Origin: an uncultured Chthonomonadaceae bacterium
GTDB lineage: Bacteria > Armatimonadota > Chthonomonadetes > Chthonomonadales > Chthonomonadaceae
NCBI GenBank assembly: GCA_963835065.1
Contig: CAWIEK010000046.1
Coordinates: 64,001-128,000 of the forward strand
Direction of reading: 5' to 3'
Length of the DNA: 64,000 nt
The notes under the pieces were generated by a model. The model worked only from the letters and a program-made list of their open reading frames with translations. It was not told where the DNA came from and did no database searches. Of the stretch, positions 3,768 through 63,624 are shown piece by piece (positions within the stretch are counted from its first letter, which is position 1; each line of letters starts with the position of its first letter). A program made the translations under genes and the position numbers.

Positions 3768-5030
3768 ATGCGACTGCGCGTGAGTGACAACAAGCGTTTT
3801 CTCGTCTATGAAAACAATACGCCTTTCTTTTACCTGGGGGATACCGCCTGGGAACTGTTTCATCGCTTGAACCGCGAACAGGCCGACCATTACCTGCAAA
3901 CGCGGGCGAAACAGGGCTTTACGGTGATACAGGCGGTTGTACTGGCGGAGCATGGGTACGACAGGCCCAATCCTTACGGGCATCTGCCGCTTGTCAACAA
4001 CGACGTGGCGCAGCCGGTGGAGGCGTACTTTCAGCATGTGGATTATATCGTAGACAAAGCCGCGTCGCATAAGATGTGGACGGGGATGCTGCCGACATGG
4101 GGCGACAAGTGGAACCAGAAATGGGGCGCGGGACCGGAACTGTTCACGCCCGACAACGCCTTTGCGTGGGGCGAGTTTCTGGGCAAGCGGTATCGGGACA
4201 AGCCCATAATCTGGATTCTGGGCGGGGATCGCCCGGTTGAAAACGACGCGCACAGGGCTATTATACGCAATATGGCGGCGGGGTTGAAGGCGGGCGACGG
4301 CGGGGCGCATTTGAAAACGTTTCATCCGCAGGGACAGCAAACCTCGTCGCAATACTTTCACACTGCAGACTGGCTGGACTTCAATATGTACCAGACCGGG
4401 CACACGCGCAACCGGGACTGCTATAATTCTATCGCCCACGATTATGCCCTCGCGCCCACAAAACCGTGCCTGGATGCGGAACCCGGCTACGAAGACCATC
4501 CGAGCGGCTTCGATCCGAAAAACGGTTTTCTGGACGCGCATGATGTTCGTAAATTCGCGTATTGGGATTTGTTCGCGGGAGCCTGCGGGCATACGTATGG
4601 CTGTCACGACATCTGGCAGTTTTTGGGCGCGGCGGACTTCAAGGCCGTCAGTTCGGCGCGTACCGATTGGAAGGACGCGCTGATATTGCCGGGCGCAAAT
4701 CAAATGCTTCATGTCCGGCACTTGCTGGAATCGCGCCCGTTCCTGTCCCGCATCCCTGACCAATCGCTAATTGTATCCGGGCAGGGCGAAGGCATGGAAC
4801 ACGTACAGGCGACGCGGGACGAACACGGATCCTACGCCTTCGTCTACTTCCCGCTGCACAAAACCGTTGCCGTTGACCTGAGCAAACTGTCGGGCAAATC
4901 GGTACGCGCTTCGTGGTACGACCCGCGCACAGGCAAAGTCACACTCGGCGGCGATTACCCCAATACCGCGCAGGAATTCACGCCCCCGGTTCCGTCGGGT
5001 CCTGATTGGATTTTGATCTTGGACGCATAA
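3768..5030 (+). CDS. Glycoside hydrolase family 140-like protein (DUF4038 plus C-terminal beta domain)
   Basis: PFFYLGDTAW, GFTVIQAVVL, WILGGDR, EPGYE, GHTYG and WYDPRTG motifs. Confidence 0.8.
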   Translation: MRLRVSDNKRFLVYENNTPFFYLGDTAWELFHRLNREQADHYLQTRAKQGFTVIQAVVLAEHGYDRPNPYGHLPLVNNDVAQPVEAYFQHVDYIVDKAASHKMWTGMLPTWGDKWNQKWGAGPELFTPDNAFAWGEFLGKRYRDKPIIWILGGDRPVENDAHRAIIRNMAAGLKAGDGGAHLKTFHPQGQQTSSQYFHTADWLDFNMYQTGHTRNRDCYNSIAHDYALAPTKPCLDAEPGYEDHPSGFDPKNGFLDAHDVRKFAYWDLFAGACGHTYGCHDIWQFLGAADFKAVSSARTDWKDALILPGANQMLHVRHLLESRPFLSRIPDQSLIVSGQGEGMEHVQATRDEHGSYAFVYFPLHKTVAVDLSKLSGKSVRASWYDPRTGKVTLGGDYPNTAQEFTPPVPSGPDWILILDA

Positions 5031-5074
5031 GGTTGTCGTTTAACAGCAAAACGTCCTGAGAGAGCGCCAGGAAA

Positions 5075-5452
5075 AAGAAATATGTAGAGTCATCGTCGAA
5101 ATCTTGGCAATACAGCGCTTTCAGCCCGATGTCTCGTTGTGTCTGGTTGTAGGAGAGAGGCATCATGGCCTCAGCAGCGTCAGGGCGAACGGGGAGAGTG
5201 ACCAGGCATTGTCTCACACCTCCTTTCCGGGTGAGTTGATAGTTGATAGGAACTTCGACTTTCAACGGCCCGCCACCTGGCTGATTAGTAGATATATGTC
5301 TGTATTAGACGGGCGGATGGGGCGGTAGTTTCGTTTTTTTTGCTTTTTTGATCTTTTTTTCTGGTTTCTTGGATTGTTGCTGTTGGGAGAACGATAGGCC
5401 GGGGCTTTGCAATCCCCGGTCGGAAAGCGCAAGCGTCCTGCGGACGCGGATT
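5075..5452 (-). repeat. Dispersed non-coding element with REP-like end; inverted copy at about 43677-43965
   Basis: About 5080-5187 is the near-identical reverse complement of about 43843-43955; GGCCGGGGCTTTGCAATCCCCGGTC...GCGTCCTGCGGACGCGGA at 5397-5450 matches the reverse complement of 43677-43730. Confidence 0.8.
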
Positions 5453-5474
5453 GTGCTATTTGTAAGCGTAGCCT

Positions 5475-6362
5475 TTATAATGCAAGAAGCGCCTGCGTTT
5501 TGGGATTGTCACTAAACGGTTCGTGTTCGGGCAGGTTGAAGTTGGCGATTAGAACTTCACGATTGAGGACGCGCGTGTTGCCGTTCTTTTCCGTGTTCAT
5601 GCCGGACGCCGATTGAACAGCGATTGTAAAGGCGTTTGGGAACAAAGCATGGATTTGGGGCGTGTCGTAGGAGGAATATATCCATTGGCAGGTGGAACGT
5701 CGCAGCCGTGCCGCCAGTTCCTCATGCTCCTCCCATGTTCGCATGTTGTGCTTGTAGTTGCAGCCGTTTTCCGGGTAGGGAGGGTCAACGTACAGGACGG
5801 TTCCGGCGCGGTCATAACGATCAAGGCACTGCCGCCAATCCAGACATTCGATAATAACGGAGCGTAAACGGTTATGCACAGGTTTCAAGCGTTCCTGAAG
5901 CGTCTTCAGTGCGCCGATGAGACGATTGCCGCCGCCACCATCCGTAATACTGGTTTGAAAGCGGGGGTAGTCCAGTTCGCCGCCCCATCCCGCCATGATT
6001 AGGTAGTAAAAACGATGGGCGCGTTGTACTTCATCAAGTTGTATTGGATCAAGACCGGCAAGGCGCTGAAACTCGGCGCGGGCGACAAGTTCCCATTCAA
6101 AGGATTGAAGCAATTTTTCGGGACAGTGTTTTACGATGCGAAAAAAGTTGATGAGTTCCTGGTCAACATCATTGAGGACTTCTACAGGACTCGGCGGCTT
6201 GCCGAACAACACCCACGCGCCCCCGGCAAACGGCTCTACGTAGCAGGTATGCGGAGGAAGCAGGGGAATGATCTGTTTTCGCAAGCGTGATTTGCCGCCG
6301 ACCCATCGAATGGGACTGTTGATGGTTTTGTACTCGGTGGAAGGGGCGTTTTTGGCTGCCAT
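5475..6362 (-). CDS. DNA adenine methyltransferase (D12/Dam-like class), orphan
   Basis: WVGGKS, YVEPFAGG (motif I) and DPPY (motif IV); no adjacent endonuclease. Confidence 0.9.
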   Translation of the reverse strand: MAAKNAPSTEYKTINSPIRWVGGKSRLRKQIIPLLPPHTCYVEPFAGGAWVLFGKPPSPVEVLNDVDQELINFFRIVKHCPEKLLQSFEWELVARAEFQRLAGLDPIQLDEVQRAHRFYYLIMAGWGGELDYPRFQTSITDGGGGNRLIGALKTLQERLKPVHNRLRSVIIECLDWRQCLDRYDRAGTVLYVDPPYPENGCNYKHNMRTWEEHEELAARLRRSTCQWIYSSYDTPQIHALFPNAFTIAVQSASGMNTEKNGNTRVLNREVLIANFNLPEHEPFSDNPKTQALLAL

Positions 6363-6470
6363 GCAAATCCTCTTCTTGAGATATTCTGCTGATAATTGAT
6401 TTTAACACAGTATTCTTAACAAAGTTACAGTCTACTTTCCCGACAAATGGCAAGCCGCATGTGAGAATAC

Positions 6471-6512
6471 GATTTCACCGAGGTAAAAAGTTCTGGGTAT
6501 GTATGACGGGAA
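6471..6512 (+). repeat. Cassette-boundary site A (right half only)
   Basis: GATTTCACC-GA-GGTAAAAAGTTCTGGGTATGTATGACGGGAA aligns without gaps to sites B-D; outer left arm absent. Confidence 0.75.
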
Positions 6513-6543
6513 TCGTTCCGGTTAGTAGAAGGGAGGTGCAGGG

Positions 6544-6996
6544 ATGGAGCCATTTGGAGACGAAATACTTGCAGCACAATTCAAAGACTTCTGTGGTGAG
6601 AAACGCTTTCGTAAATTTTTGGATGAACTGAATACAACATGTCGTGAGAAAGGACGGTTGCTTTTCTGGCAGCAAGACCTTTGGGACGCTTTTGTACTTA
6701 CGCACAACGAGTACGCCTGTATCTCCTTTGAATACCTTGCGGCTCCGATAGTTTCCTGTCCCGTTCATGGCTGCTTCTTCCAACCAGATCGTGTTCCCAT
6801 TTGTTACGGCCTAATAAGATTTACACCGGGCTATTGGGAAACAAGAAACACATATTTCCCATACGCGAATACCCTCATTCTAGGCGGTTGCGAAGTAGAT
6901 GAGCAGAGCGAAGGGGACGTAATGTATTGTCCCGAATGTCGCCGCGCCGAGCAGATATGGGAGCAAGAGCGAATTGCCTCAAGGGGGCCGAAGTAG
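6544..6996 (+). CDS. Hypothetical Cys-rich, probably Zn-binding protein (cassette 1)
   Basis: GGAGG RBS; CPVH, ICYGL, LGGC and YCPEC motifs. Confidence 0.7.
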   Translation: MEPFGDEILAAQFKDFCGEKRFRKFLDELNTTCREKGRLLFWQQDLWDAFVLTHNEYACISFEYLAAPIVSCPVHGCFFQPDRVPICYGLIRFTPGYWETRNTYFPYANTLILGGCEVDEQSEGDVMYCPECRRAEQIWEQERIASRGPK

Positions 6997-7003
6997 GGAA
7001 ACC

Positions 7004-7084
7004 ATGCAGAGATGTGAGGAATCCTTTATACCCGGAACTGATGATTTTACTGACGTGAAATGCCACAGGTATGTGTGACAGGGA
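7004..7084 (+). repeat. Cassette-boundary site B (full)
   Basis: ATGCAGAGATGTGAGGAATCCTTT-ATACCCGGAACTGATGATTTTACT-GA-CGTGAAATGCCACAGGTAT-GTGTGACAGGGA. Confidence 0.85.
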
Positions 7085-7119
7085 GTGTTCTGTGATGCTT
7101 TGCAGAAGGCTGATGGTAA

Positions 7120-7551
7120 ATGGAGAGTATTGGCACTAGCCAGTGTCTCCACAGGACAACCAATATGAAGCCTATTAACCTGATGCTGCCAAAACATCGC
7201 CGCCCAACCATTCATAAACTCATGCAGGGATTGAAGCGCGTCGCCAATGCTGTTTGGCTCGTCATCGTCGTGATTGTTGCAGGCCCTATGTTATTCCCCT
7301 TCTGGTTGCTGGACGAGGTGAAAACGAAACTCACACAATGCCGAAATTGTAGTCGCATAGGAGGCTTACGAAAATACGATCCTGAAAAGTATGGAGCCAC
7401 ATATTATCTTTGTATGCGTTGCAAGACTCGTTATCTGAACTATCGCGGTACATGGCAGGATGCTTCGGCTCCTGAATACGATGATAAATTCGGTAAGCAT
7501 CGGAATGTGCGCCCCCTACTTCGCGCCGAAAAAGACCAGAAGAGAGCCTGA
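7120..7551 (+). CDS. Hypothetical membrane-anchored zinc-ribbon protein (cassette 2); true start may be downstream
   Basis: TM segment followed by CRNC...CMRC; stop codon overlaps start of site C. Confidence 0.6.
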   Translation: MESIGTSQCLHRTTNMKPINLMLPKHRRPTIHKLMQGLKRVANAVWLVIVVIVAGPMLFPFWLLDEVKTKLTQCRNCSRIGGLRKYDPEKYGATYYLCMRCKTRYLNYRGTWQDASAPEYDDKFGKHRNVRPLLRAEKDQKRA

Positions 7552-7630
7552 TGCAGACATTCGAGGAAAATACATACCCGGAACTTTGCCTTTTCAGGAC
7601 GGTAAATATCACAAGTATATTTGACAGGGA
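7551..7630 (+). repeat. Cassette-boundary site C (full)
   Basis: ATGCAGACATTCGAGGAAAATAC-ATACCCGGAACTTTGCCTTTTCAG-GA-CGGTAAATATCACAAGTAT-ATTTGACAGGGA. Confidence 0.85.
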
Positions 7631-7681
7631 GTGCTTCGAGCCGCTTGCAGGATTCGGGCGGATTATGGCGAATGGGGAAAT

Positions 7682-8539
7682 ATGAAACGTCGTCTGCTAT
7701 TTGTGTCCGTGTTGGTTGTCGCTCTTCTGGTGAGTGGCTGCGGCCTGTCGGTGTGGCAGGCGAAGCGGCAGTATACGCTTAACCGGCAGTTGGTCGCGGC
7801 TCTGCTGAATAACGACAACAAACAGGCAATCGCTCTTGTCAACGCAGGAGCCGACCCGAACACACCCTATGCCACGCCGCCTGCGCCTTCCTTCAAACGG
7901 TTGCTGAATCAGCTGCTGCATCGTTCGTCTCCCCCTCCCCATAACGATCTCTGGGCGTTTTTATTTGTCTGTGGAGAAGGATGGGAACTAGACAATGGCG
8001 TCTTTGCGGATCACCGCACGGAAGATGTATACTTGGTTCAATCCATGCTGGAATATGGCGCGGATTGCAAGGGCGTAGATTCGGAAAATCATTCGGCTCT
8101 ATCTTGGGCCGCTTTACGCAGTCGTATCCATCTCACGCAACTACTGTTGGAACACGGTGCGAACGTCAATCAACAGGATACTTCTGGCAACACTCCCCTG
8201 ATGTATGCAGTTCGACACTTTGATGTAAACATGACACGCCTTCTGCTGGAGCATGGTGCGGATGTTTCCCTCAAAAATAAGTGGGAAGTCACAGCCTTAT
8301 ATGATGTCGTAAGTGAGTGTAGGCACCCCCACAACCACCACAACACAGATATTCTTCATCTTCTGCTGGCACATGGAGCCAACCCAAACCAACCTAGTGT
8401 AGACAACGGGACTCCCCTATGGCTTGCACAAAGTCGAGGAGAGGCCGATATTGTTACTCTGCTGCAAAAAGGCGCAAAACAGCACAAAGGCAGAAGCGGC
8501 AGGAGCAGGAGAGCGCAGGATGGAGCCGATGATGGGTAA
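7682..8539 (+). CDS. Ankyrin repeat protein with N-terminal signal/TM segment (cassette 3)
   Basis: LLLEHGANVN, GNTPLMYA, LLLEHGADV and LLLAHGANPN repeats. Confidence 0.9.
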   Translation: MKRRLLFVSVLVVALLVSGCGLSVWQAKRQYTLNRQLVAALLNNDNKQAIALVNAGADPNTPYATPPAPSFKRLLNQLLHRSSPPPHNDLWAFLFVCGEGWELDNGVFADHRTEDVYLVQSMLEYGADCKGVDSENHSALSWAALRSRIHLTQLLLEHGANVNQQDTSGNTPLMYAVRHFDVNMTRLLLEHGADVSLKNKWEVTALYDVVSECRHPHNHHNTDILHLLLAHGANPNQPSVDNGTPLWLAQSRGEADIVTLLQKGAKQHKGRSGRSRRAQDGADDG

Positions 8540-8596
8540 GCGGATTGTGAGTAGGGGCACATATGTGAACAGGCAGGTACAGGGACAATAAGGCAG

Positions 8597-9256
8597 GTGT
8601 CAATTTCCATGATTACTCCACAAGAATTTGCTCTTCGCTGGCAAGATACGCAGATTGACACTCAAATTGCCCGTTTAGTGGCAGAAAACGCCGATTACAA
8701 CTATGCTGACAACGTGTGGGGTTGTTCACCGCTCGTTCGCTATGAACTCAATGTAGTGAATAATCTGCCACTTTCAGAAGAAGCCAAACACTTCCTTTGC
8801 GAAGCCGGACTGCCTAGCCAGATATTCGATTGGCGTCTTGATCATCTACCTGGAAACCTTCCGCCGCTGCCAAATGCGATGGAGGGATATTATTTTCCAG
8901 AGGGTTATTCCCGTTATCGTGTGCTGGGAGCGGCATTTTGGAAAGAGTTGGAGATATGTTTCGGGTTTCTCTGCCTCGATCTGGAAGCAGACGGTCGTGT
9001 TGTGGCTATCTGGTCAGGATTTGAGGAGGCTCAGTTTCTAAATTCCAGCATTGCTCAGTTTGCCGAGTACGTTTTGCTGTTCCGCGACTTCAATGAATGG
9101 TGTTCCATTCATCATCCCTATCCTCTTTCGGAGCCAGAGGACACAGGTATAAATCAGCATATTGAACAAGTGCTTGAGCAACTCAAGCTCGTTGACCCAC
9201 ATGTGCATGACTACGACTGGTTAAACCAGCCTTGGTCTGTACAAGTGCCTCCATAG
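8597..9256 (+). CDS. SUKH-4-like immunity protein (cassette 3)
   Basis: LSEEAKHFLCEAGLP...LCLDLEADGRVV...FLNSSIAQF pattern. Confidence 0.7.
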   Translation: MSISMITPQEFALRWQDTQIDTQIARLVAENADYNYADNVWGCSPLVRYELNVVNNLPLSEEAKHFLCEAGLPSQIFDWRLDHLPGNLPPLPNAMEGYYFPEGYSRYRVLGAAFWKELEICFGFLCLDLEADGRVVAIWSGFEEAQFLNSSIAQFAEYVLLFRDFNEWCSIHHPYPLSEPEDTGINQHIEQVLEQLKLVDPHVHDYDWLNQPWSVQVPP

Positions 9257-9318
9257 CCTCTCCGCTCCCTGCCTCCACTAGCCTGGTACGTCCCGCAGGA
9301 GGGCCGGAATAGGGAAGG

Positions 9319-9399
9319 GTGCAGACATTTGAGGAAAAATATATACCCGTTAGTGAGGATTCCACCGATGTGAAAGGCCATAGGCATATCTGGCAGGAA
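9319..9399 (+). repeat. Cassette-boundary site D (full)
   Basis: GTGCAGACATTTGAGGAAAAATAT-ATACCCGTTAGTGAGGATTCCACC-GA-TGTGAAAGGCCATAGGCAT-ATCTGGCAGGAA. Confidence 0.85.
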
Positions 9400-9420
9400 C
9401 ATTGGAGGGACTTGTGAAAG

Positions 9421-9720
9421 ATGACGCGGAAATCCAAAAATCCAGAGTCGAATGACGCACAGGCCGAAATAGTAGAGGGTGAAATTGCAGAGATAAAGGT
9501 GAATGGTCACTATACTGTTCGGCTTGACGATGGCATGGTGTTATCGTGCCATCTGTCACGATGGTACTATGGTCGAGATGCAGACTTCACGTTTGTGCGA
9601 TTACAGGTTGGCACTCGCGTCAAGGTCAAGGTACTACCTCATAAGGCTGGTTGGGGGCGAATTATGCCTCCGCAATGGCAGAAGCGCGCAAAGACAATAG
9701 AACCAGATGCAAATACTTGA
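9421..9720 (+). CDS. Divergent IF-1-like (S1/OB-fold) protein (cassette 4)
   Basis: IVEGEIAE..NGHYTVRLDDG..LSCHLS...RLQVGTRVKV...GRI follows the IF-1 pattern; stop lies inside site E. Confidence 0.7.
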   Translation: MTRKSKNPESNDAQAEIVEGEIAEIKVNGHYTVRLDDGMVLSCHLSRWYYGRDADFTFVRLQVGTRVKVKVLPHKAGWGRIMPPQWQKRAKTIEPDANT

Positions 9721-9757
9721 AGAAAGTTTTATACCTGCAACTGAGGATTTTACAGAC
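9707..9757 (+). repeat. Cassette-boundary site E (left half; right half diverged)
   Basis: ATGCAAATACTTGAAGAAAGTTTT-ATACCTGCAACTGAGGATTTTACA-GA-C then departs from consensus. Confidence 0.8.
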
Positions 9758-9903
9758 TACTACACTGCGGTGTAAATATGCAGGTAGTTCTTTTGTCCGT
9801 AGGATAATTGGCCGCAGGCTTACCAACCGGCAAAGAATTTAGATGGTATATGCCGGGGCAACGCGGCAGTATCTTGATAAAGCAGATAAGGCTGAAGACG
9901 AAA

Positions 9904-10668
9904 ATGAACATTGACCTGACGGGCAAAAACGCTCTGATTACGGGCGGCACGAGGGGGATAGGACGCACCATCAGCTTGACGCTGGCGCAGGCGGGGGCGC
10001 GGATTGGCGCGATTTACCGCAGCGACGCGCAGACGGCGGAACAAACGCTTGCCGAACTCCGCGCCCTGCCCGATACGCCCGAACATTTCGCCTTGCAAGC
10101 CGATATTGCGGATGAAACGCAGGCGACTGAGGCGGTGCAGCAGGCGTTGGCGAAATTCGATAACGCGCTGGATGTGTTGGTATTGGATGCGGCGGCGGGC
10201 GCGGGCGGGCCACTCGTCGGCATGACGACGGAGGATTGGAAAAAGCCGTTTGAGGTCAATGTGCATGGCGCGTTTTATGTCGTTCGGGCGGCGGCAAGCG
10301 CCTTGCGTCCGGGCGGCAGTATCATTTTTCTGTCTTCGGGCGCGGGACACGATTATCTGGAAGGCTTGTCGGCGTATGGCGCGAGCAAGGCGGCGGTCAA
10401 TCATATAGCGGGAATTCTGGCGCAGGAACTTGGACCAAAAGGCATCCGCGTCAACGTTGTCAGCCCCGGCCACACCCACAAGGACGGCCCAAACCCGAAC
10501 GCCGACCCCGCCGCGTACACCGCCTCACAGCGCAACATTGCCGACACAACCGCGCTGCGACGATTGGGAACCGCGCAGGATGTGGCAAACGTCGTGCTGT
10601 TCTTTGCCAGTGACCTATCCGGGTTTGTCACGGGGCAATGGCTGCGTGTCAATGGCGGACGTATCTAA
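9904..10668 (+). CDS. SDR family NAD(P)-dependent oxidoreductase
   Basis: TGGTRGIG, YGASK, IRVNVVSPG and VTGQWLRVNGG motifs. Confidence 0.92.
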   Translation: MNIDLTGKNALITGGTRGIGRTISLTLAQAGARIGAIYRSDAQTAEQTLAELRALPDTPEHFALQADIADETQATEAVQQALAKFDNALDVLVLDAAAGAGGPLVGMTTEDWKKPFEVNVHGAFYVVRAAASALRPGGSIIFLSSGAGHDYLEGLSAYGASKAAVNHIAGILAQELGPKGIRVNVVSPGHTHKDGPNPNADPAAYTASQRNIADTTALRRLGTAQDVANVVLFFASDLSGFVTGQWLRVNGGRI

Positions 10669-10696
10669 ACCCCCGCGCTAAAAGTTTCTCCCAATT

Positions 10697-10836
10697 GGCC
10701 GGGTACTGAAAGTACCCGGCAGGAAAGGTCAAGCGTCCTGCGGACGCGGGAATCTTGCATGTAGAAGATCGCGTCCGAAGGACGTTTGTTTTTTGTTGCC
10801 GGGTACTGAAAGTACCCGGCACTGTCCTGCGGACGC
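10697..10836. repeat. REP/BIME-like palindromic element between convergent genes
   Basis: Two GCCGGGTACTGAAAGTACCCGGC hairpins with GTCCTGCGGAC / GTCCGAAGGAC submotifs. Confidence 0.85.
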
Positions 10837-10874
10837 AAATGCCGCGCCTCTTGGAGAGGTTCTAAGCGCCTATC

Positions 10875-12149
10875 TTATTTGCCTTGCGCGGCGTTGTCGG
10901 GCGTGAGCAGATAAATGTGAAGCGCGTTGTTGATGCGGCCTGTTCCGACGATCTGGCCCTGATCGTTGATGGCGCTTGCCGCATACAGCACCCAACCGGA
11001 GTTGGTCGCAATCAGCCCGTTGAGGTTCTGCATCACGCCATTGCGCGGGCGTACAAAGCCGAGATCATAAGCGCCGTTACCATCCGCTGTAGACCCGCCT
11101 ACAATGTCGCCCTGTGTGTTGACGCCAAGCGCAATCGCATGATTGCCGTTGGGCAGCGTACCTAAATCGGTCAGCTTGCCGTTCTGCCACATAACCGCGT
11201 GCTGCTGATAAGTCGGAGTGTCGAGGGGCGCTGTCGCCGACGCGCCGACAATCAAGCCGTTGTTGTTAATGCCGTAAGCGCCGCTGAACGTTCCGCCAAG
11301 CGAAGGCAGGGGAGTGATGACGCCCTGATTGGTCGTGAAGGCGATCAGGGTCGGGGCGGTGACGGCGTTGGCGCGGCCTGCAATCTGGCCGCTGTCATTG
11401 ATGGCGTAAGGAGTGGTGAGAAAACCCTCCATTATGCCTAAATCGCTCATTTTGCCGTTTTGGTAAAGGAACATGTGCGAAGTGGAAGACGAATCCGCGC
11501 CGGCAGGAGGGTTAGTTCCCGTCGCCTGCGTGTCGGAAATGCCGACAATCTGGCCGGTGTTGTTCAGCGCGTACGCCACGCTGGAAGGGCCACCTAACGT
11601 ACCCAAATCCGTCGCTTTGCCCTGTCCGTACAAGCAGGCATGGAGGCCACTGTCACCGGGAAGCGTGGAAGCCCCCGCCGCCTGCCCGGAAGCGTTGACG
11701 CCGAAGCCGTAACTCAGCGAACCGCCCAGCGTTGGAAGCGTCGTCCTGTTTCCCGCCTGGTACAGCACCGCCTGCGCCTGCGTTGGCTGCTGGTCGAAGA
11801 CGTCACCCGCAGTGATAACCACCTGCCCGGCGTTGTTGATGGACGCGCCGTGTAAATCATTGAGCGCGCTGCCCAGGTCCGCCACCGTAATGGCCCTGCT
11901 GCGCGGCAGGAGGCCGTTCGGGCTGAAAGCCGCGCGGGTTTGCGCCGTGCCTGCCGACAAGCGTGGAAGCGGGAAAGCGGATTTCGACGCCGTGTTGGAA
12001 GCAGACGGCAGTGCGCCAAGATCGGTCAGCGTGTAGTGCAGACTCTTTGTGGCAGAAAACCCTGCCCCCATGTCGCCGCCCCCGCTTCCGCCACACCCCG
12101 CAAGAACGCTTAATCCTAGTAAAACCGGCAGTTTGTGTACAATTCGCAT
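10875..12149 (-). CDS. Extracellular HAF-repeat lipoprotein
   Basis: Lipobox LAGC; repeated TDLGTLGG..S.AYALN..GQIVG units. Confidence 0.85.
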   Translation of the reverse strand: MRIVHKLPVLLGLSVLAGCGGSGGGDMGAGFSATKSLHYTLTDLGALPSASNTASKSAFPLPRLSAGTAQTRAAFSPNGLLPRSRAITVADLGSALNDLHGASINNAGQVVITAGDVFDQQPTQAQAVLYQAGNRTTLPTLGGSLSYGFGVNASGQAAGASTLPGDSGLHACLYGQGKATDLGTLGGPSSVAYALNNTGQIVGISDTQATGTNPPAGADSSSTSHMFLYQNGKMSDLGIMEGFLTTPYAINDSGQIAGRANAVTAPTLIAFTTNQGVITPLPSLGGTFSGAYGINNNGLIVGASATAPLDTPTYQQHAVMWQNGKLTDLGTLPNGNHAIALGVNTQGDIVGGSTADGNGAYDLGFVRPRNGVMQNLNGLIATNSGWVLYAASAINDQGQIVGTGRINNALHIYLLTPDNAAQGK

Positions 12150-47413: not shown

Positions 47414-50400
47414 ATGCAGGAAGGAGTGATCCCGTTCATGACGACGCCTGAGACAGCCGACGCTTCGTTCCGCCTGCGTCTTTTCGGCCCGATGCAGGCG
47501 CTGGTGGACGGCAACGCCCTGCCTCCGATGCGTTCGCGCAAAGGCTTGTGGCTGCTGGCTCTGCTGACCCTGCGCCATGATCGCCCGGTGGAGCGCGAAT
47601 GGCTGGCCGGAACCCTCTGGCCGGACGTGGAGCAAAGCCAGGCATTCGCCAATTTGCGCCCGATTTTAAGCGAACTGCGCAACAGTCTGGGCAGCCAGAA
47701 AGAGCGCTTGCAGTCGCCGGACCGCCATACGCTTCGATTAGATTTGGCCGGCGCGGACGTTGACCTGATCGCCTTTGATGCCGCAATTGCCAATAAAAAC
47801 CTGACGGCATTGGAACAGGCAGCAACGCTGTATCAAGGTTCCCTGCTGGAAGGATGCGCGGAAGAGTGGGTGTTTCAGGAGCGTAATCAGCGCGAACAGG
47901 ATTGTTTACACGCCTTGCAGCAGTTGGGGGATGCCGCTCTGACCGCCAGGGAGTATGCCAAAGCGATTCATTATTATCAGAAGGCCGCCGCCATTGATCC
48001 CTTCCTGGAAGTAGCGCGGCGCGGTTGGATGGAAGCGCTTGCGCAAAACGGGGATCGTAACGCCGCGTTACAGGTTTATCGCGAATTTGCCGCATTGCTG
48101 CGCAGTAATCTCCATGCCGCTCCTGACGAACGGACGAACGCTTTGTACGCGCGCCTGCGCGCCGAAGCGCGGCAGCAAGGCAATTCTCCCACTGTGGTTG
48201 CAACGCCGCCCGCGCCTGCGCCGACAGTAACAGGCTACCTCCCGCATCCATTGACTGATCTGGTGGGAAGGGAGGATGAGCGCGCGGAAGTGGCGTCCCG
48301 GTTGCGGCGTTCCCGGCTCGTGACGCTGACGGGTATGGGCGGAATCGGCAAGACCCGGCTTTCTCTTGAAGTTGCCGGGGAAGTCGTCCATGAGTATGCC
48401 GATGGCGTTTGGCTGGTCGCGCTGGACGCGCTTACCGAGGGGAAGCAAGTGCTGCCACAAATCGCTTCCGTTTTGGGCGTGAAAGAAGAAGCGCAGCGGG
48501 AACTAATGCAAAGCCTGGCCGAGCGGCTGCGTAACAAGCGTCTGCTGCTGGTGCTGGACAACTGCGAACACCTGTTGCAGGCAAGCGCCCAGGCTGTCGG
48601 GCCGATTTTGCGGGAAAGTGAGGGGGTACGGGTTTTAGCCACGAGTCGGGAAGCATTGGGCATTACGGGGGAAATTGTTTGGGCCGTGCCTTGCCTTGCC
48701 GTGCCTGACCCGGCGCATCTGCCGCAGGGACAGGCCACCTTGCTGCGGGTGCTGACGGGCTATGAAAGCGTACAATTGTTCGTGGAGCGGGCGCAATCCA
48801 TCCAAAAGACATTTCTGCTGAACGCGGAAAATGCCCGGATGGTTGCGGAAGTGTGCTTTCGCCTGGAAGGTATTCCTCTCGCCATCGAACTGGCCGCCGC
48901 CCGCATCAAAGCCATGACCGTCGAGCAGATCGCGGCGCGTTTGAACAACGAACTGGGGCTGTTGATCGGCGGAAGCCGGACGGCGCAATCGAGGCAATTA
49001 ACGTTGAGAGCGACATTGGACTGGTCGTATGCCCTGTTGAGCGAACCGGAGCGAATCCTGCTGCGGCGATTGTCGGTTTTTGCGGGCGGCTGGGCCTTGG
49101 AAGCGGCGGAACAGGTATGCGGCGAGGAGAGGGAACAGGGAACAGGGAACAGGGTACAGGAAAAAGAAGGAGAGCCGTTACTTTCTCCTTTCTCCTTTCT
49201 CCTTTCTCCTGCCGACGTGCTGAATTTGCTGACTTCCCTTGTGGACAAATCGCTGGTTGCGTTTGGGGATCAGGAAGGAACGATGGGCGGGCGTTACCGT
49301 TTACTGGAACCGGTGCGGCAGTACGCGGCGGAGCAATTACAGGCTGGCGGGGAAGCCGAGCAGGCCAGGGCAAGGCATCGGGACTGGTTTCTGGCATTGG
49401 CGGAGGAGGCCACGCTGCATTTGCGGGGAAGCGGGCAGCGGCAATGGCTGCAGCGGCTGGACAGAGAATACGACAATCTGCGGGCGGCGCTGGCGTGGAG
49501 CGCAGCGGATGCGCAGGGCGCGGAAGTCGGGCTGCGGCTCACGGGCGCGTTGTGGCGGTTCTGGTATGTGCGCGGCGATTACAGTGAAGGACGCCGGTAT
49601 CTGTGGAACGCGCTGGAACGGGAAGGCGCGCAGGAGCGGACGCCGGCACGGGCGCTGGCGCTGAACGGAGCCGGCGCGCTGGCTTACGATCAGGCCGATT
49701 ATATGGCGGCGCGGGCGCTGTTTGAGGAAGGCTTGAGTATTGGCAGGCAATTGGAAGACAGGCGGGGCGTCGCCGGTTCGCTGCGTAATTTGGGCAATGT
49801 GGCCCTGGCATTCAGCGAAAATGCAACAGCGCAGGCGCTGTATGAAGAGAGTTTGGCGTTAAGCAGAAAATTAGAGGATAGGCATAGTATCGCCGTTACC
49901 TTGAGCAACCTGGGCATTGTGGCGCGTCATGAGGGGGATTATGCGGCCTCAAGAACTCTCTTCGAAGAAAGCCTGGGAATTTCTAAAAATTTGGGAGACC
50001 AACTTGGCATGGCGCGGGCGTTTCTGAATCTGGGCAACGTGGCGCGTCAGCAGGGCGATGTTGCCGTTTCACAAAATTTCTACGAGGAGAGCTTGGGGAT
50101 TTACAGAGAATTGGGAGACCGGCAGGGCATCGCGCGGTGTCTCGGCAGTTTGGGCAGTGTGGCTCATGGGGAGGGCAAATACGAGCTGGCGCGAGTTCTG
50201 CAGGAGGAGAGTTTACGCCTCTTTCGGGAGTTGGACGACAGGCAGGCGATTGCTTTAGCGCTCGGCAATTTAGGCGCGGTTGCTTATGAACAGACAGATT
50301 ATGCGTCGGCGCGAAGTTTGTATAAGGAAAGTTTAAGCCTTTTGCAAAAGTTGGGAGACAAGGCGGGGGCAGTGGAAAGCCTGGAAGGATTGGCAGCCGT

Positions 50401-50650
50401 TTTGTCGGCGCAGACCGAAACACAGAAAGCGGCGATGCTATGGGGAGGGGCTGAGATGCAGCGCAAGATGCTTGGTATGCCCTTACCGCTCAATCAGCGC
50501 GAGCAGTACGACAAACAGGTGGCGCAAGCCCGCGCTGTGTTGGGTGAAGAGGCGTTTACGGCTGCCTGGGAAGCAGGCAGCGTTCTGCCCTTGGAGCATG
50601 CCGTAGATTACGCGCTCGGAAATTCATCACTGCCACATCAGAGCCATTGA
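47414..50650 (+). CDS. AfsR/SARP-like regulator (wHTH, BTAD, NB-ARC-like ATPase, TPR repeats)
   Basis: LRLFGP, LYQGSLLEG, TGMGGIGKTRL, LLVLDNCEH and LEGIPLAIELAAAR motifs; C-terminal TPRs. Confidence 0.9.
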   Translation: MQEGVIPFMTTPETADASFRLRLFGPMQALVDGNALPPMRSRKGLWLLALLTLRHDRPVEREWLAGTLWPDVEQSQAFANLRPILSELRNSLGSQKERLQSPDRHTLRLDLAGADVDLIAFDAAIANKNLTALEQAATLYQGSLLEGCAEEWVFQERNQREQDCLHALQQLGDAALTAREYAKAIHYYQKAAAIDPFLEVARRGWMEALAQNGDRNAALQVYREFAALLRSNLHAAPDERTNALYARLRAEARQQGNSPTVVATPPAPAPTVTGYLPHPLTDLVGREDERAEVASRLRRSRLVTLTGMGGIGKTRLSLEVAGEVVHEYADGVWLVALDALTEGKQVLPQIASVLGVKEEAQRELMQSLAERLRNKRLLLVLDNCEHLLQASAQAVGPILRESEGVRVLATSREALGITGEIVWAVPCLAVPDPAHLPQGQATLLRVLTGYESVQLFVERAQSIQKTFLLNAENARMVAEVCFRLEGIPLAIELAAARIKAMTVEQIAARLNNELGLLIGGSRTAQSRQLTLRATLDWSYALLSEPERILLRRLSVFAGGWALEAAEQVCGEEREQGTGNRVQEKEGEPLLSPFSFLLSPADVLNLLTSLVDKSLVAFGDQEGTMGGRYRLLEPVRQYAAEQLQAGGEAEQARARHRDWFLALAEEATLHLRGSGQRQWLQRLDREYDNLRAALAWSAADAQGAEVGLRLTGALWRFWYVRGDYSEGRRYLWNALEREGAQERTPARALALNGAGALAYDQADYMAARALFEEGLSIGRQLEDRRGVAGSLRNLGNVALAFSENATAQALYEESLALSRKLEDRHSIAVTLSNLGIVARHEGDYAASRTLFEESLGISKNLGDQLGMARAFLNLGNVARQQGDVAVSQNFYEESLGIYRELGDRQGIARCLGSLGSVAHGEGKYELARVLQEESLRLFRELDDRQAIALALGNLGAVAYEQTDYASARSLYKESLSLLQKLGDKAGAVESLEGLAAVLSAQTETQKAAMLWGGAEMQRKMLGMPLPLNQREQYDKQVAQARAVLGEEAFTAAWEAGSVLPLEHAVDYALGNSSLPHQSH

Positions 50651-52978: not shown

Positions 52979-54486
52979 ATGCAATCTTCAGATCGAGTTA
53001 CAGAATTCGGGTTAACAAACTTCAAATCCTTTCATTATCTGGAACACATCAAATCTGTGCCCTTAACGGTACTTGTCGGCGCGAACAGCGCGGGCAAAAG
53101 TTCCCTACTGCAAAGTCTGTTGCTGCTGAAACAAACTAACGGAGGTGACCGCTTCAATGGCGTTCTCAAGTTCGATGGCGAGTGGACGCACTTAGGCAGC
53201 TACGCCAACGTCATTTCTGACTTCGATCCACACCGTAAACTTACATCGAGTTCTCTGTTCACGAGTTTACAATTTTTGGCAGAATAGTTGCCATTGAGCT
53301 GCTATCTTCAAGTCGGAGTTTCCTAAAGGAGAGGCTAAAACAGTCATGCTCAGATTTGCGTTACAACTTACGATTAGTGATGAGTTTTAGTATGCCCACG
53401 GCGAGGTGCTAGCATAGAGGTTACTCGTTCATATTTTGCTCGGTTAGTTCGTTCATACCATAATTCATGACGGTCAGAACAAAGTGTGGATTTGCAATGT
53501 AAGTGCAGCGGTAGAGATACATCTCTTCTAAAAATTTACCCCAACATGCCACTATTACCAAGAAACCTGAAATCGAGTTGCACTCATGTAGTAAATGATG
53601 GCTTCCTGACCTATTCGCTTCAACTTGCTTCCACAAAACATGAGTGGTAAGAAGAAAGATCAATCGGCCTTCTATGTTCCCTTTATCTTATGTTCCTGCT
53701 CTTTCTATACCTGTAGGCATTTTGGCTAATACACTTTGTCAGACCGTCTGGAATATCTAGGTCCTTTGCGCGCTGACCCACGTCCGTTTTATCCTGTAGG
53801 AAACTCCTGATGTTGGACTGACAAGGGGAAACCACTGTGCCTTACCTGTTACTGCCACCAAAACGATGTTATTACGTATGTGCCATCTCCCGTGCACGGC
53901 GTTAGGAAGCGACACTATTTAGACGCGACAAACTACTGGCTGAAAGTCATGAAGGTGACGGACTGCCTGAGCATCAATCCTGTTGAGTCTATCGCTTACG
54001 TTGCCGCTATTCAGTCACGGTCTGCGGCAACTAAGTCCGTCAACTTGTCGCAGGTGGGGTTTGGGGTGGGGCAGTTGCTGCCTGTGCTTGTCAGCTGGTT
54101 TGAAAGGGCCTGATAATTCTATGCTGCTGTTGGAGCAGCCGGAGATACATCTGCACCCGCGCTTGCAGGCGATGTTGGCGGAGTTTCTGCTGTGTACGGC
54201 GCAGGTGGGGAAAACCGTGATTGTGGAAACGCATAGCGATCATCTGATAAATCGCTTGCGGCGGTGCATTGCCGAAGATGAAACCGGAACGCTTGCCGAT
54301 ATGGTCAGCATCCTGTTTGTGCATCCCGGCACGGAGGACAATCCGAGTTCCTATGTCGAGGCATTGGAGATAGATGAAACGGGAAACATCGTCAACTGGC
54401 CTCCCGATTTTCTAAGCGAAGCCGCCAACGAGTCGCTTGCCATACTCCGGGCGTCACAGCAGAAAACTACAGCGGCAAAGCCATGA
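52979..54486 (+). pseudogene. ABC-type AAA ATPase with DUF3696-like C-terminus, multiply frameshifted (decay or sequencing error)
   Basis: NFKSF, GANSAGKSS (Walker A), YLGPLR, VGFGVGQLLPVL, LEQPEIHLHP, ETHSDH and IVNWPPDF spread over several frames. Confidence 0.75.
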
Positions 54487-63222: not shown

Positions 63223-63624
63223 ATGGAACTCTGGCAGCAATGGTTTGCAATGGCGATTGAATCCAATAATGCGGCAGAAAATGCGCAAAGCGCCCAACAT
63301 TGGCGTTCCAGCGTAAGCCGGTACTATTATTCAGCGTATCAGGCTGTTTCGGCTGTGTTGATTTATCGCGGACTGACGCCGCCACCAGAGGAAGAAGCCT
63401 GGGGACATGCTTCCACGCCGGACATGCTTGTGGAGCATTTCGGAACCTACATTCGCAGCAAGGATGTCAGGCAACGCTACGCAAATCAACTGCGGGAGTT
63501 GTACGCCTGGCGGATCAAAGCGGATTATCGTGGAAACGAGCAACTCCGAGCAAGCATCGGCGTTGTTCGTAAAAATGCCAACAGGTTGGTAGAAATGGCA
63601 GAGGGCATACTGCCGGAGGTATAG
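63223..63624 (+). CDS. HEPN domain protein
   Basis: [14 protein letters not shown]...H...[13 protein letters not shown] (R-x4-Y HEPN motif). Confidence 0.8.

Follow-up and report, generated by a model that had tools for sequence, protein, structure and literature searches.

The described systems that appear to come closest to the locus reported here, a series of small genes separated by repeats within a 64,000-nucleotide stretch of DNA from an uncultured Chthonomonadaceae bacterium (phylum Armatimonadota), are integrons and, in Bacteroidales, the immunity arrays known as rAID-1. In an integron the last attC site is complete, and the first site (attI) shares only a short right-hand core. Intermediates of IS30-type elements contain abutted inverted-repeat junctions with a 2-base spacer, and tandem non-autonomous inverted-repeat elements are also known; in the pdif/Xer modules of Acinetobacter plasmids, gene modules lie between short sites and are moved by a host recombinase encoded elsewhere. 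The rAID-1 arrays are described as having a XerD-family tyrosine recombinase at their start, as occurring in over half of sequenced Bacteroidales, and as affording validated protection (10.1101/471110). Two further sources describe arrays of immunity genes formed by homologous recombination or sequential displacement, namely the esaG strings of type VII secretion (T7SS; PMC9484751) and type VI secretion (T6SS) arrays in Vibrio cholerae (PMC5361080). A literature search on integrons in Armatimonadetes returned nothing relevant.

The stretch, hereafter the window, comprises positions 64,001 to 128,000 of contig CAWIEK010000046.1 (assembly GCA_963835065.1), which is C46:64001-128000 of the 8.0 Mb source genome, G000. 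Two genomes of the same genus, G001 (97% complete) and G002, were available for comparison. A preliminary description of the sequence had proposed that five small genes near its left end formed an integron-like cassette array bounded by a recombination-site-like repeat. The existence of a repeat array bounding four gene units of low G+C content was confirmed. Tentatively, it is explained by cassettes having been inserted long ago, head to tail, at one short core beside a decayed restriction-modification module, through a recombinase or target-specific transposase acting in trans, with replacement of gene bodies and decay at a later stage.

The array is like an integron in being a one-directional series of small, promoter-poor accessory genes of low G+C content, with a repeated and imperfectly symmetric site, a platform on one side and a content that varies among relatives. 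It differs from an integron in having neither integrase, attC cores nor hairpin signal; in that crossover would occur at the centre of the site, which makes half sites of both ends; and in its platform, which is an orphan methyltransferase gene with the remnant of a restriction gene. Its units also have long homologous flanks and remnants of a progenitor, and its site was detected in two genomes only. Compared with rAID-1 arrays as their source presents them, the array begins with a D12-class methyltransferase gene instead of a recombinase gene, belongs to another phylum and is represented by four loci in two genomes, and a role in immunity is predicted from its genes only. Repeats between the unit genes, the feature compared with the intergenic repeats of rAID-1, were present; just one unit gene, SUKH-4 (1.3e-14), was of a named immunity family.

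Five repeat copies delimit four gene units

Five co-oriented copies of the repeat (A to E) were reproduced both by direct reading and by profile scan, with the central GA dinucleotides at 6480, 7052, 7598, 9367 and 9755 and GA-to-GA spacings of 572, 546, 1769 and 388 bases, as first described. The 18-base core has the consensus GATTTYAC-NGAN-GTRAAA; it is preceded either by a flank of restriction-gene type (L1) or by the cassette left half (L2), and the right halves fall into two subtypes (R1 and R2). An nhmmer profile was made from the complete copies B, C and D and searched over the whole of G000, where these three were recovered at E values of 7e-25 to 4e-23. Junction B (6984–7119, plus strand; E = 7e-25) consists of an L2 left half, a core at 7043–7060 and a right half; junction C (7536–7665, plus; E = 4e-23) has a degenerate core, CCTTTTCAG-GA-CGGTAAA, and an R2 right half; junction D (9304–9420, plus; E = 3e-23) is likewise complete. 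Copy A (6471–6543, plus) has the core GATTTCACC-GA-GGTAAAA followed by an R1 right half, and aligned to profile positions 41–92 alone, i.e., to the right half (E = 0.14, and 8e-11 with a right-half profile). Copy E (9692–9756, plus), which ends ..GATTTTACA-GA, aligned to positions 3–54 alone, i.e., to the left half (E = 2e-4, and 1.5e-13 with a left-half profile). These match ranges agree with the earlier view of complete inner copies, a first copy with only its right half and a last copy with only its left half.

The scan found one more right half beyond the window array, on contig C53, and separate left-half and right-half profiles detected no additional copies in G000. With the left-half pattern there were four matches in the window and none in any of 100 shuffles; a chance origin of the copies is excluded.

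The two terminal copies are hybrids: A joins the restriction-gene remnant to core and right half, while E joins a left half, the left part of the core and GA to a dispersed repeat. All five copies stood as they had been drawn, except in length; the conserved junction covers approximately 110–170 bases and extends into the ends of the adjoining reading frames, and homology from unit to unit runs about 75 bases to the left and 85 bases to the right of the core. The central GA, thought to be invariant, was so among the window copies but was replaced by AA in two of four copies in G002. The copies lacked attC cores and have arms of about 7 bases around GA, which upholds the claim that the site is neither attC nor of the 11-6-11 dif layout. 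The right half of copy A was 75% identical to that of a complete site in G002, and between the R2 right half of junction C and the right half that comes first in the G002 array identity was 66%; the right-half subtypes are common to both genomes, while the genes downstream differ.

All five genes lie on the plus strand. Unit 1 (6544–6996) encodes a Cys-rich protein of 150 aa and unit 2 (7120–7551) a transmembrane zinc-ribbon protein of 143 aa, both without a family. Unit 3 has two genes, encoding an ankyrin-repeat protein with a lipoprotein-like N-terminus (7682–8539; Pfam Ank_2, 1.7e-22) and a SUKH-4 immunity-type protein (8597–9256; PF14435, 1.3e-14). Unit 4 (9421–9720) encodes a protein of 99 aa with a weakly IF-1-like OB fold (Pfam eIF-1a, 6e-4; NCBIfam infA, 5.8e-6; both below cut-offs). 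Gene calls agreed with the identities originally given to the five, families being clear for ankyrin and SUKH-4 only. It was also borne out that genes 2 and 5 stop at or inside the next copy, and that the four units are lower in G+C than core genes: they had 45–50% G+C, apart from a single bin of 400 bases within the ankyrin gene, which had 54%, while flanking genes mostly had 55–65%.

The ankyrin family is multi-copy in G000, with paralogues on C9, C42, C44, C45 and other contigs, and homology of the unit 3 gene to these native genes begins at 7666, right after junction C. No Pfam, NCBIfam or PADLOC family was matched by the unit 1 and unit 2 proteins, or by the MEPKTGK proteins considered below; the protein-atlas neighbours of the unit 1 and MEPKTGK proteins were unnamed clusters. 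The zinc-ribbon proteins of three loci (window unit 2 and two loci in G002) showed no mutual similarity. SUKH-4 is the only named immunity family among the unit genes; the ankyrin match is a generic one, and three of the proteins belong to no family. The SUKH-4 and ankyrin genes suggest that the units carry orphan immunity-type proteins, as a prediction from gene content.

Different sequences meet at the core

Eleven copies from G000 and G002 were aligned side by side, of which five had the L1 flank and six had L2. L1 and L2 share just the last 11 bases or so before the centre (GATTTYACN). Right flanks were of at least four kinds: in seven copies the cassette right half, and otherwise a truncated controller gene, unrelated sequence in G002:C9, and two subfamilies of dispersed repeat.

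A block consisting of the methyltransferase gene, L1 and the core was present at three loci. Window positions 5531–6488 were 95.5% identical to C53:417356-418320 over 965 bases, and positions 5809–6488 were 82% identical to the syntenic block in G002:C9. Each time, similarity ended within about 8 bases of the centre, and past the core there were three different continuations: the cassette array in the window, a truncated controller gene and restriction gene in C53, and an unrelated TPR gene in G002:C9. Moreover, the C53 segment with the truncated controller gene and intact restriction gene is bounded by two copies of L1 plus core, the second of which leads into a right half of cassette type. 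Since breakpoints cluster at the core in several contexts, the core may be a present or past preferred joining point, and this clustering is the best evidence that it is.

A further array with other genes, such as had been anticipated, was found in G002 (C1). It consists of a short L1-like stretch with core and right half, a gene for a 237-aa ankyrin protein, a complete site, an intact gene of the MEPKTGK family for a 163-aa membrane protein that begins with MEPKTGK, a left half and a dispersed repeat. The expectation that relatives would differ between the methyltransferase and SDR genes was likewise satisfied in G002. The region of G000 syntenic to the G002:C1 array (on C24) holds one unrelated membrane-protein gene and was rejected on that account as the empty state of the array; the apiosidase-methyltransferase neighbourhood of the G002 array was absent from G001.

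The left part of the platform block is an orphan D12-class (Dam-like) N6-adenine DNA methyltransferase gene (5475–6362, minus strand; PF02086, 1.6e-22). L1 itself (6404–6474, plus; reading ..YFPDKWQAACENTI..), which flanks copy A on the left, is what remains of the 3' terminus of a type II restriction-enzyme gene that has been deleted. Over 108 bases it shared 76% identity with the corresponding terminus of the intact restriction gene on C53, which matched REase_II in PADLOC (1.8e-46). Relatives of this gene in three-gene systems terminate in ..AAYYPDKWKEANQS and ..VVAYFPDQW.., the motif ..AYFPD.W.. being common to G011 and G024. Of a three-gene type II system, then, the window retains only the methyltransferase gene and 70 bases of the restriction gene. 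Systems of methyltransferase, controller and restriction enzyme are intact in G011 and in four of six further relatives examined (L080-L083), and G024 has all three genes with the restriction gene broken by a stop; the restriction gene occurred in 11 of 401 genomes of the phylum. The possibility that the core is an operator of the controller protein was rejected, the operator in intact relatives being GTCTC-N4-5-GAGAC, unlike the core. On the right, the variable region is followed by a conserved SDR oxidoreductase gene (9904–10668, plus; adh_short_C2, 1.2e-53), which is syntenic in G002:C9.

Some features of the related loci were recorded separately. C53:417274-419345 contains a second methyltransferase copy beside the intact type II restriction gene; the controller (helix-turn-helix) gene lacks its first 23 or so codons and is in frame with the restriction gene, so that one frame of 343 aa starts inside the core. 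The syntenic methyltransferase gene of G002:C9 (L011 5732-6475) seems to be broken, being a 247-aa frame that diverges after ..DRYDR. In G002:C9 the core is immediately followed by an inverted repeat of about 16 bases, CCCAAGTTGCTACCTT ... AAGGTAGCAACTTGGG, which lies upstream of the TPR gene and has about 90 bases between its arms (L011 ~5560-5640, minus).

A dispersed-repeat unit (9757–9875, plus) starts right after the GA of copy E and is likely to be the inverted-repeat end of a small transposon shell. The repeat gave 40 BLAST hits in G000, in two subfamilies, and the family consensus begins CTAGTACACTGCGG, which corresponds to window position 9757. Both site-bounded arrays, in the window and in G002:C1, end at one such unit. 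In G002:C14 (L013 ~3985-4690), flanked by genes for a MoxR-like ATPase and a glycosyltransferase, an inverted pair of these repeats, with TA outside both, surrounds a single 149-aa gene homologous to gene 1; the pair looks like a Tc1/IS630-style transposon shell with a cargo gene.

Two sets of features elsewhere in the window were noted. High-copy intergenic repeats lie at 5070–5380, 5398–5448 and 10698–10820; they comprise a family of about 300 bases with very many copies and GC-rich palindromic units (GCCGGG..CCCGGC..GCGTCCTGCGGACGC) downstream of genes. Other defence-like genes are at 47414–50647 (a 1078-aa BTAD/NB-ARC/TPR protein of STAND type), 53983–54483 (a 167-aa fragment, AAA_15/AAA_21, AbiEii-like) and 63223–63621 (HEPN-domain).

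Progenitor remnants flank apparently exchanged genes

Genes of the MEPKTGK family are multi-copy in G000, where contigs C42, C45 and C68 carry them in arrays without the site, next to ankyrin genes and further small genes, and their native ends recur at the window junctions. The right half closes with the native leader (..gcagggATGGAGCC) in copy A, where it makes up the last 20 or so bases, and in the complete G002 site; in the window, it is the Cys-rich gene of unit 1 that comes after this leader. The native 3' end (..GGGCCGGAATAG) precedes the left halves of junctions B and D. Within unit 1, the first 8 and last 15 or so bases of the gene resemble remnants of a MEPKTGK gene. In unit 3, a 5' remnant of about 70 bases at 8520–8591 (plus; reading MEPMMGKRIVSRGTY..) matched C42, C45, C68, C67 and C12 by BLAST (E = 2e-16 to 1e-6), and a 3' remnant of about 40 bases at 9270–9313 (plus; ..GGTACGTCCCGCAGGAGGGCCGGAATAG) matched the 3' ends of the intact gene in the G002 array and of the paralogue at C68:109367-109816. 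The SUKH-4 gene sits between these two remnants, in place of the gene body. Because progenitor remnants occur at both ends of the reading frame, units 1 and 3 clearly appear to be MEPKTGK units with a replaced body; the case that units 2 and 4 derive from the same source is weaker. Positions 6550–6969 of gene 1 were 75% identical to the G002:C14 gene, its sole homologue outside the window.

The site-free arrays lie at C42:35900-39550, C45:120000-122400 and C68:106300-110700. Three small-gene families without a known family recur there: ankyrin lipoproteins, MEPKTGK proteins of approximately 150–165 aa, and proteins of 190–207 aa starting ..RFWYRFKNWFRTKPG...

Observations weighing against insertion at the core

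A substantial number of observations tell against the insertion of cassettes at the core. Several concern the joins. The restriction gene has its stop codon in the left part of the core, and a break in similarity there is partly expected at any gene end. The last left half of the G002:C1 array breaks about 12 bases before the centre. The methyltransferase-SDR interval of G002:C9 keeps L1 and the core, followed by a TPR gene and a zinc-ribbon gene without further sites, and both variable regions reach beyond the site-bounded arrays. The empty site that the preliminary description had envisaged was not found in G000, G001 or G002, where the counts of GATTTYACN-GA-CTASTAC equalled those of a reversed-pattern control. 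Finally, the restriction-modification system was ruled out as a general platform: in all six further relatives examined there was neither array nor site downstream, and unrelated genes followed the restriction gene.

The distribution of the site is narrow. A covariance model of the complete site identified it in 2 of 42 genomes of the family (six places in G000 and two in G002) and not in G001. The left-half pattern used for wider searches was strict, and diverged sites would escape it. Among species-representative genomes it matched 21 loci; only G002 had two matches, and the other 20 loci were single, near the 17 or so expected (a hand estimate from the information content of the pattern). 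In metagenomes there were 34 single matches and in viral contigs two, none of which was upheld on profile rescoring, and BLAST against plasmid and phage records gave no match. Within the reach of the strict pattern, the site is rare and belongs to one lineage only, the motif being limited to two loci in G000 and two in G002. Dispersal at unrelated targets, in the manner of miniature inverted-repeat transposable elements, was not seen either: the only loci were C46 and C53 in G000 and C1 and C9 in G002 (the last being core only), all of which carry L1 on the left, and one ancestral event could explain all four. Two core-like matches with one mismatch elsewhere in G000 were discounted, one lying in a YajQ-like gene and one by unrelated sequence, with about 0.7 expected by chance (hand estimate).

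No enzyme was found beside the array. Neither C46 nor C53 carried a tyrosine or serine recombinase, so that the co-occurring recombinase gene looked for was absent from both; G000 has six tyrosine and two large serine recombinases in total, on other contigs, and the PF00589 matches were on C16, C24, C30, C49 (two) and C63. The nearest recombinase to the G002 array was about 39 kb away. By score, candidate recombinases common to the two genomes are C30:1593-2057 of G000 with C4:118946-119389 of G002, and C49:432742-433284 of G000 with C4:226908-227450 of G002. A scan of 60 reading frames in the window matched no recombinase or transposase family, in keeping with the original remark that the window has no recombinase. 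A public read run (8% of sampled words present) yielded only contigs of about 150 bases, which were uninformative on excision or circles; one of these spanned junction B unchanged, and none revealed a joint in the array.

The copies are also old, with left halves 58–74% and right halves 46–75% identical; conservation of the core was no higher than that of the outer flanks, and the core of copy C is degenerate. No copy had a stable fold relative to shuffles (z = -1.06 to +0.92; four complete copies on the top strand and three on the bottom, with RNA energy parameters), and no compensatory changes in two putative stems were seen by eye among the aligned copies. The inverted symmetry formerly attributed to the site proved weak overall (mean z = 1.0 for 35 pairs of right and left halves). 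Four of the 35 pairs reached z >= 2.9 (4.6, 9.2, 2.9 and 3.2); the right half of A and the left half of C formed one strong pair (18 bases at 94%), and strong symmetry was limited to the right half of A with the left halves of B and C. This trace of terminal inverted symmetry counts in favour of insertion.

The same data bear on the very improbable reading of the array as an integron of the chromosome, or as clustered attC sites without an integrase. There is a general likeness in the co-oriented small genes of low G+C content between repeats with some inverted symmetry. However, none of the 11 copies read had RYYYAAC/GTTRRRY cores at its boundaries; the last copy is a half site while the first keeps a whole right half; the cassettes share long homologous flanks; there was no significant single-strand fold and no Rfam family at E up to 1 in window positions 5000–11000; and contig C46 lacks a tyrosine recombinase. 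Four defining features were tested and none was found; for this reason, the array is not an integron.

Lastly, the breakpoints of gene exchange in units 1 and 3 are at the ends of the reading frames and not at the core, and the homology of gene 1 is limited to 6550–6969, its relative in G002:C14 being without a site. Constant flanks with variable bodies are unlike core-to-core mobility of cassettes, and would fit homologous or illegitimate exchange. In the main rival account, which is possible, no dedicated enzyme took part: a single unit (right half, MEPKTGK gene, left half) lying between direct repeats of 11–13 bases (GATTTYACNGA) would have been tandemly amplified by slippage or unequal crossing-over and then diverged, its bodies being exchanged with paralogous arrays of small genes by homologous or illegitimate recombination. 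Half sites at the array ends would follow, because the duplicated unit lay between two short direct repeats. Such an account suits the progenitor remnants shared by both frame ends of units 1 and 3, with the intact gene in the G002 array; the extent of homology between units (about 75 and 85 bases around the core), far beyond what an enzyme site needs; the site-free arrays on C42, C45 and C68, which show that paralogues of these families are frequently shuffled; and the confinement of the site to loci with one left flank. The age of the copies and the failure to find an enzyme, on C46 and C53 or among the 60 window frames, are also in its favour, as are the descriptions of arrays of immunity genes enlarged through homologous recombination or through sequential displacement (PMC9484751, PMC5361080). 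However, it leaves unexplained why, at each of three loci, the block stops at the core and has another continuation, one such block being recent (95.5%), as well as the C53 restriction-gene segment between two core copies. G002 has, besides, an extra complete junction between ankyrin and MEPKTGK genes, families that are directly adjacent in window unit 3, and the residual inverted symmetry points to a mobile-element origin of at least the first unit.

A short reading frame in the junctions

Five of six left halves contain a short frame, MQ.FEE.FIP.TEDFTD.., which is open from ATG or GTG behind a GGGAA motif resembling a ribosome-binding site; it is 13–25 codons long and starts 7–10 bases past the upstream stop. 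Synonymous to non-synonymous codon-pair differences were 38/102 in this frame; the two remaining frames gave 23/116 and 12/115. The junction might then be a selected expression module, comprising the short frame and a conserved leader for the next gene, whose copies double as homology arms. We regard this as improbable. The open frames and the codon-pair ratio are consistent with it, and the right half does run on into the following gene's own leader and its start codon. Against this, differences by codon position (0.257, 0.289 and 0.323 per position) showed only a weak bias, the frame of copy C is shifted, and the right half is non-coding, because conservation at the base level persists across a 1-base indel. 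Neither a sigma-70-like promoter nor a terminator motif was found in the junctions (the region had three promoter-like sites where 4.2 were expected, none in a junction), and Rfam and folding were negative, as above. Site-free arrays of the same gene families manage without the junction, and the half sites would be left unaccounted for.

Discussion

The reading of the array as integron-like cassettes stands in part. Its layout, the hybrid half sites, the flanks that change at the core and the second array speak for it; rarity, the want of a recombinase and of an empty site, and the exchange of bodies inside the flanks speak against it. In the tentatively preferred history, cassettes would have been joined head to tail at the 18-base core, where a restriction-enzyme gene ends, by an enzyme acting in trans, either a recombinase or a transposase specific for the target. 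The first cassette would have carried a MEPKTGK-family membrane-protein gene, in one unit together with an ankyrin gene. Gene bodies would later have been swapped within constant flanks, clearly so for the Cys-rich and SUKH-4 genes and perhaps, on weaker grounds, for the zinc-ribbon and IF-1-like genes. The system would be inactive now: judged from the sequence, the structure is rare and old, has no catalyst that was found, and looks inactive.

Other described systems share parts of this pattern. As in inverted-repeat elements, the units have weakly inverted ends, a 2-base (GA) or 4-base spacer and a catalyst that would act in trans, and the same genus has TA-flanked cargo shells. Unlike such elements, symmetry is weak, the spacer is not TA, and there are neither dispersed solo copies nor an autonomous partner with the same ends. 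With pdif modules the array has in common that modules lie between short sites and that no recombinase adjoins; it differs from pdif and dif in its arms of about 7 bases (TTTYACN / NGTRAAA) around GA (a 4-base centre, NGAN), instead of 11-6-11, and in that the arrays are chromosomal and belong to one lineage. The T7SS and T6SS immunity arrays, as their sources depict them, are similar in being strings of small immunity-type genes with conserved homology at the junctions and bodies exchanged in constant flanks. Those arrays follow, on the downstream side, a locus for a toxin or for secretion, and what they repeat is parts of coding sequence, whereas the present array has no toxin gene near it and its junction, of approximately 100 bases, is non-coding or barely coding and has a defined centre.

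It is conceivable, if rather unlikely, that the locus represents an undescribed gene-capture system of Armatimonadota, in which a platform of methyltransferase gene and restriction-gene remnant offers a core that takes up immunity-type cassettes through an enzyme encoded elsewhere, at a site unrelated to attC, dif or rAID-1 repeats. At present, the locus is chiefly of value as a case in which the shuffling of small immunity-type genes within a genus can be followed, via junction repeats, recombination among paralogues and TA-flanked transposon shells. If the core were a true target of recombination or transposition, cassette capture would have been invented independently once more, outside integrons and rAID-1, in a poorly studied phylum and anchored on a decayed restriction-modification module. 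Cassettes with constant flanks and swapped bodies would then bear on how cassettes gain their sites.

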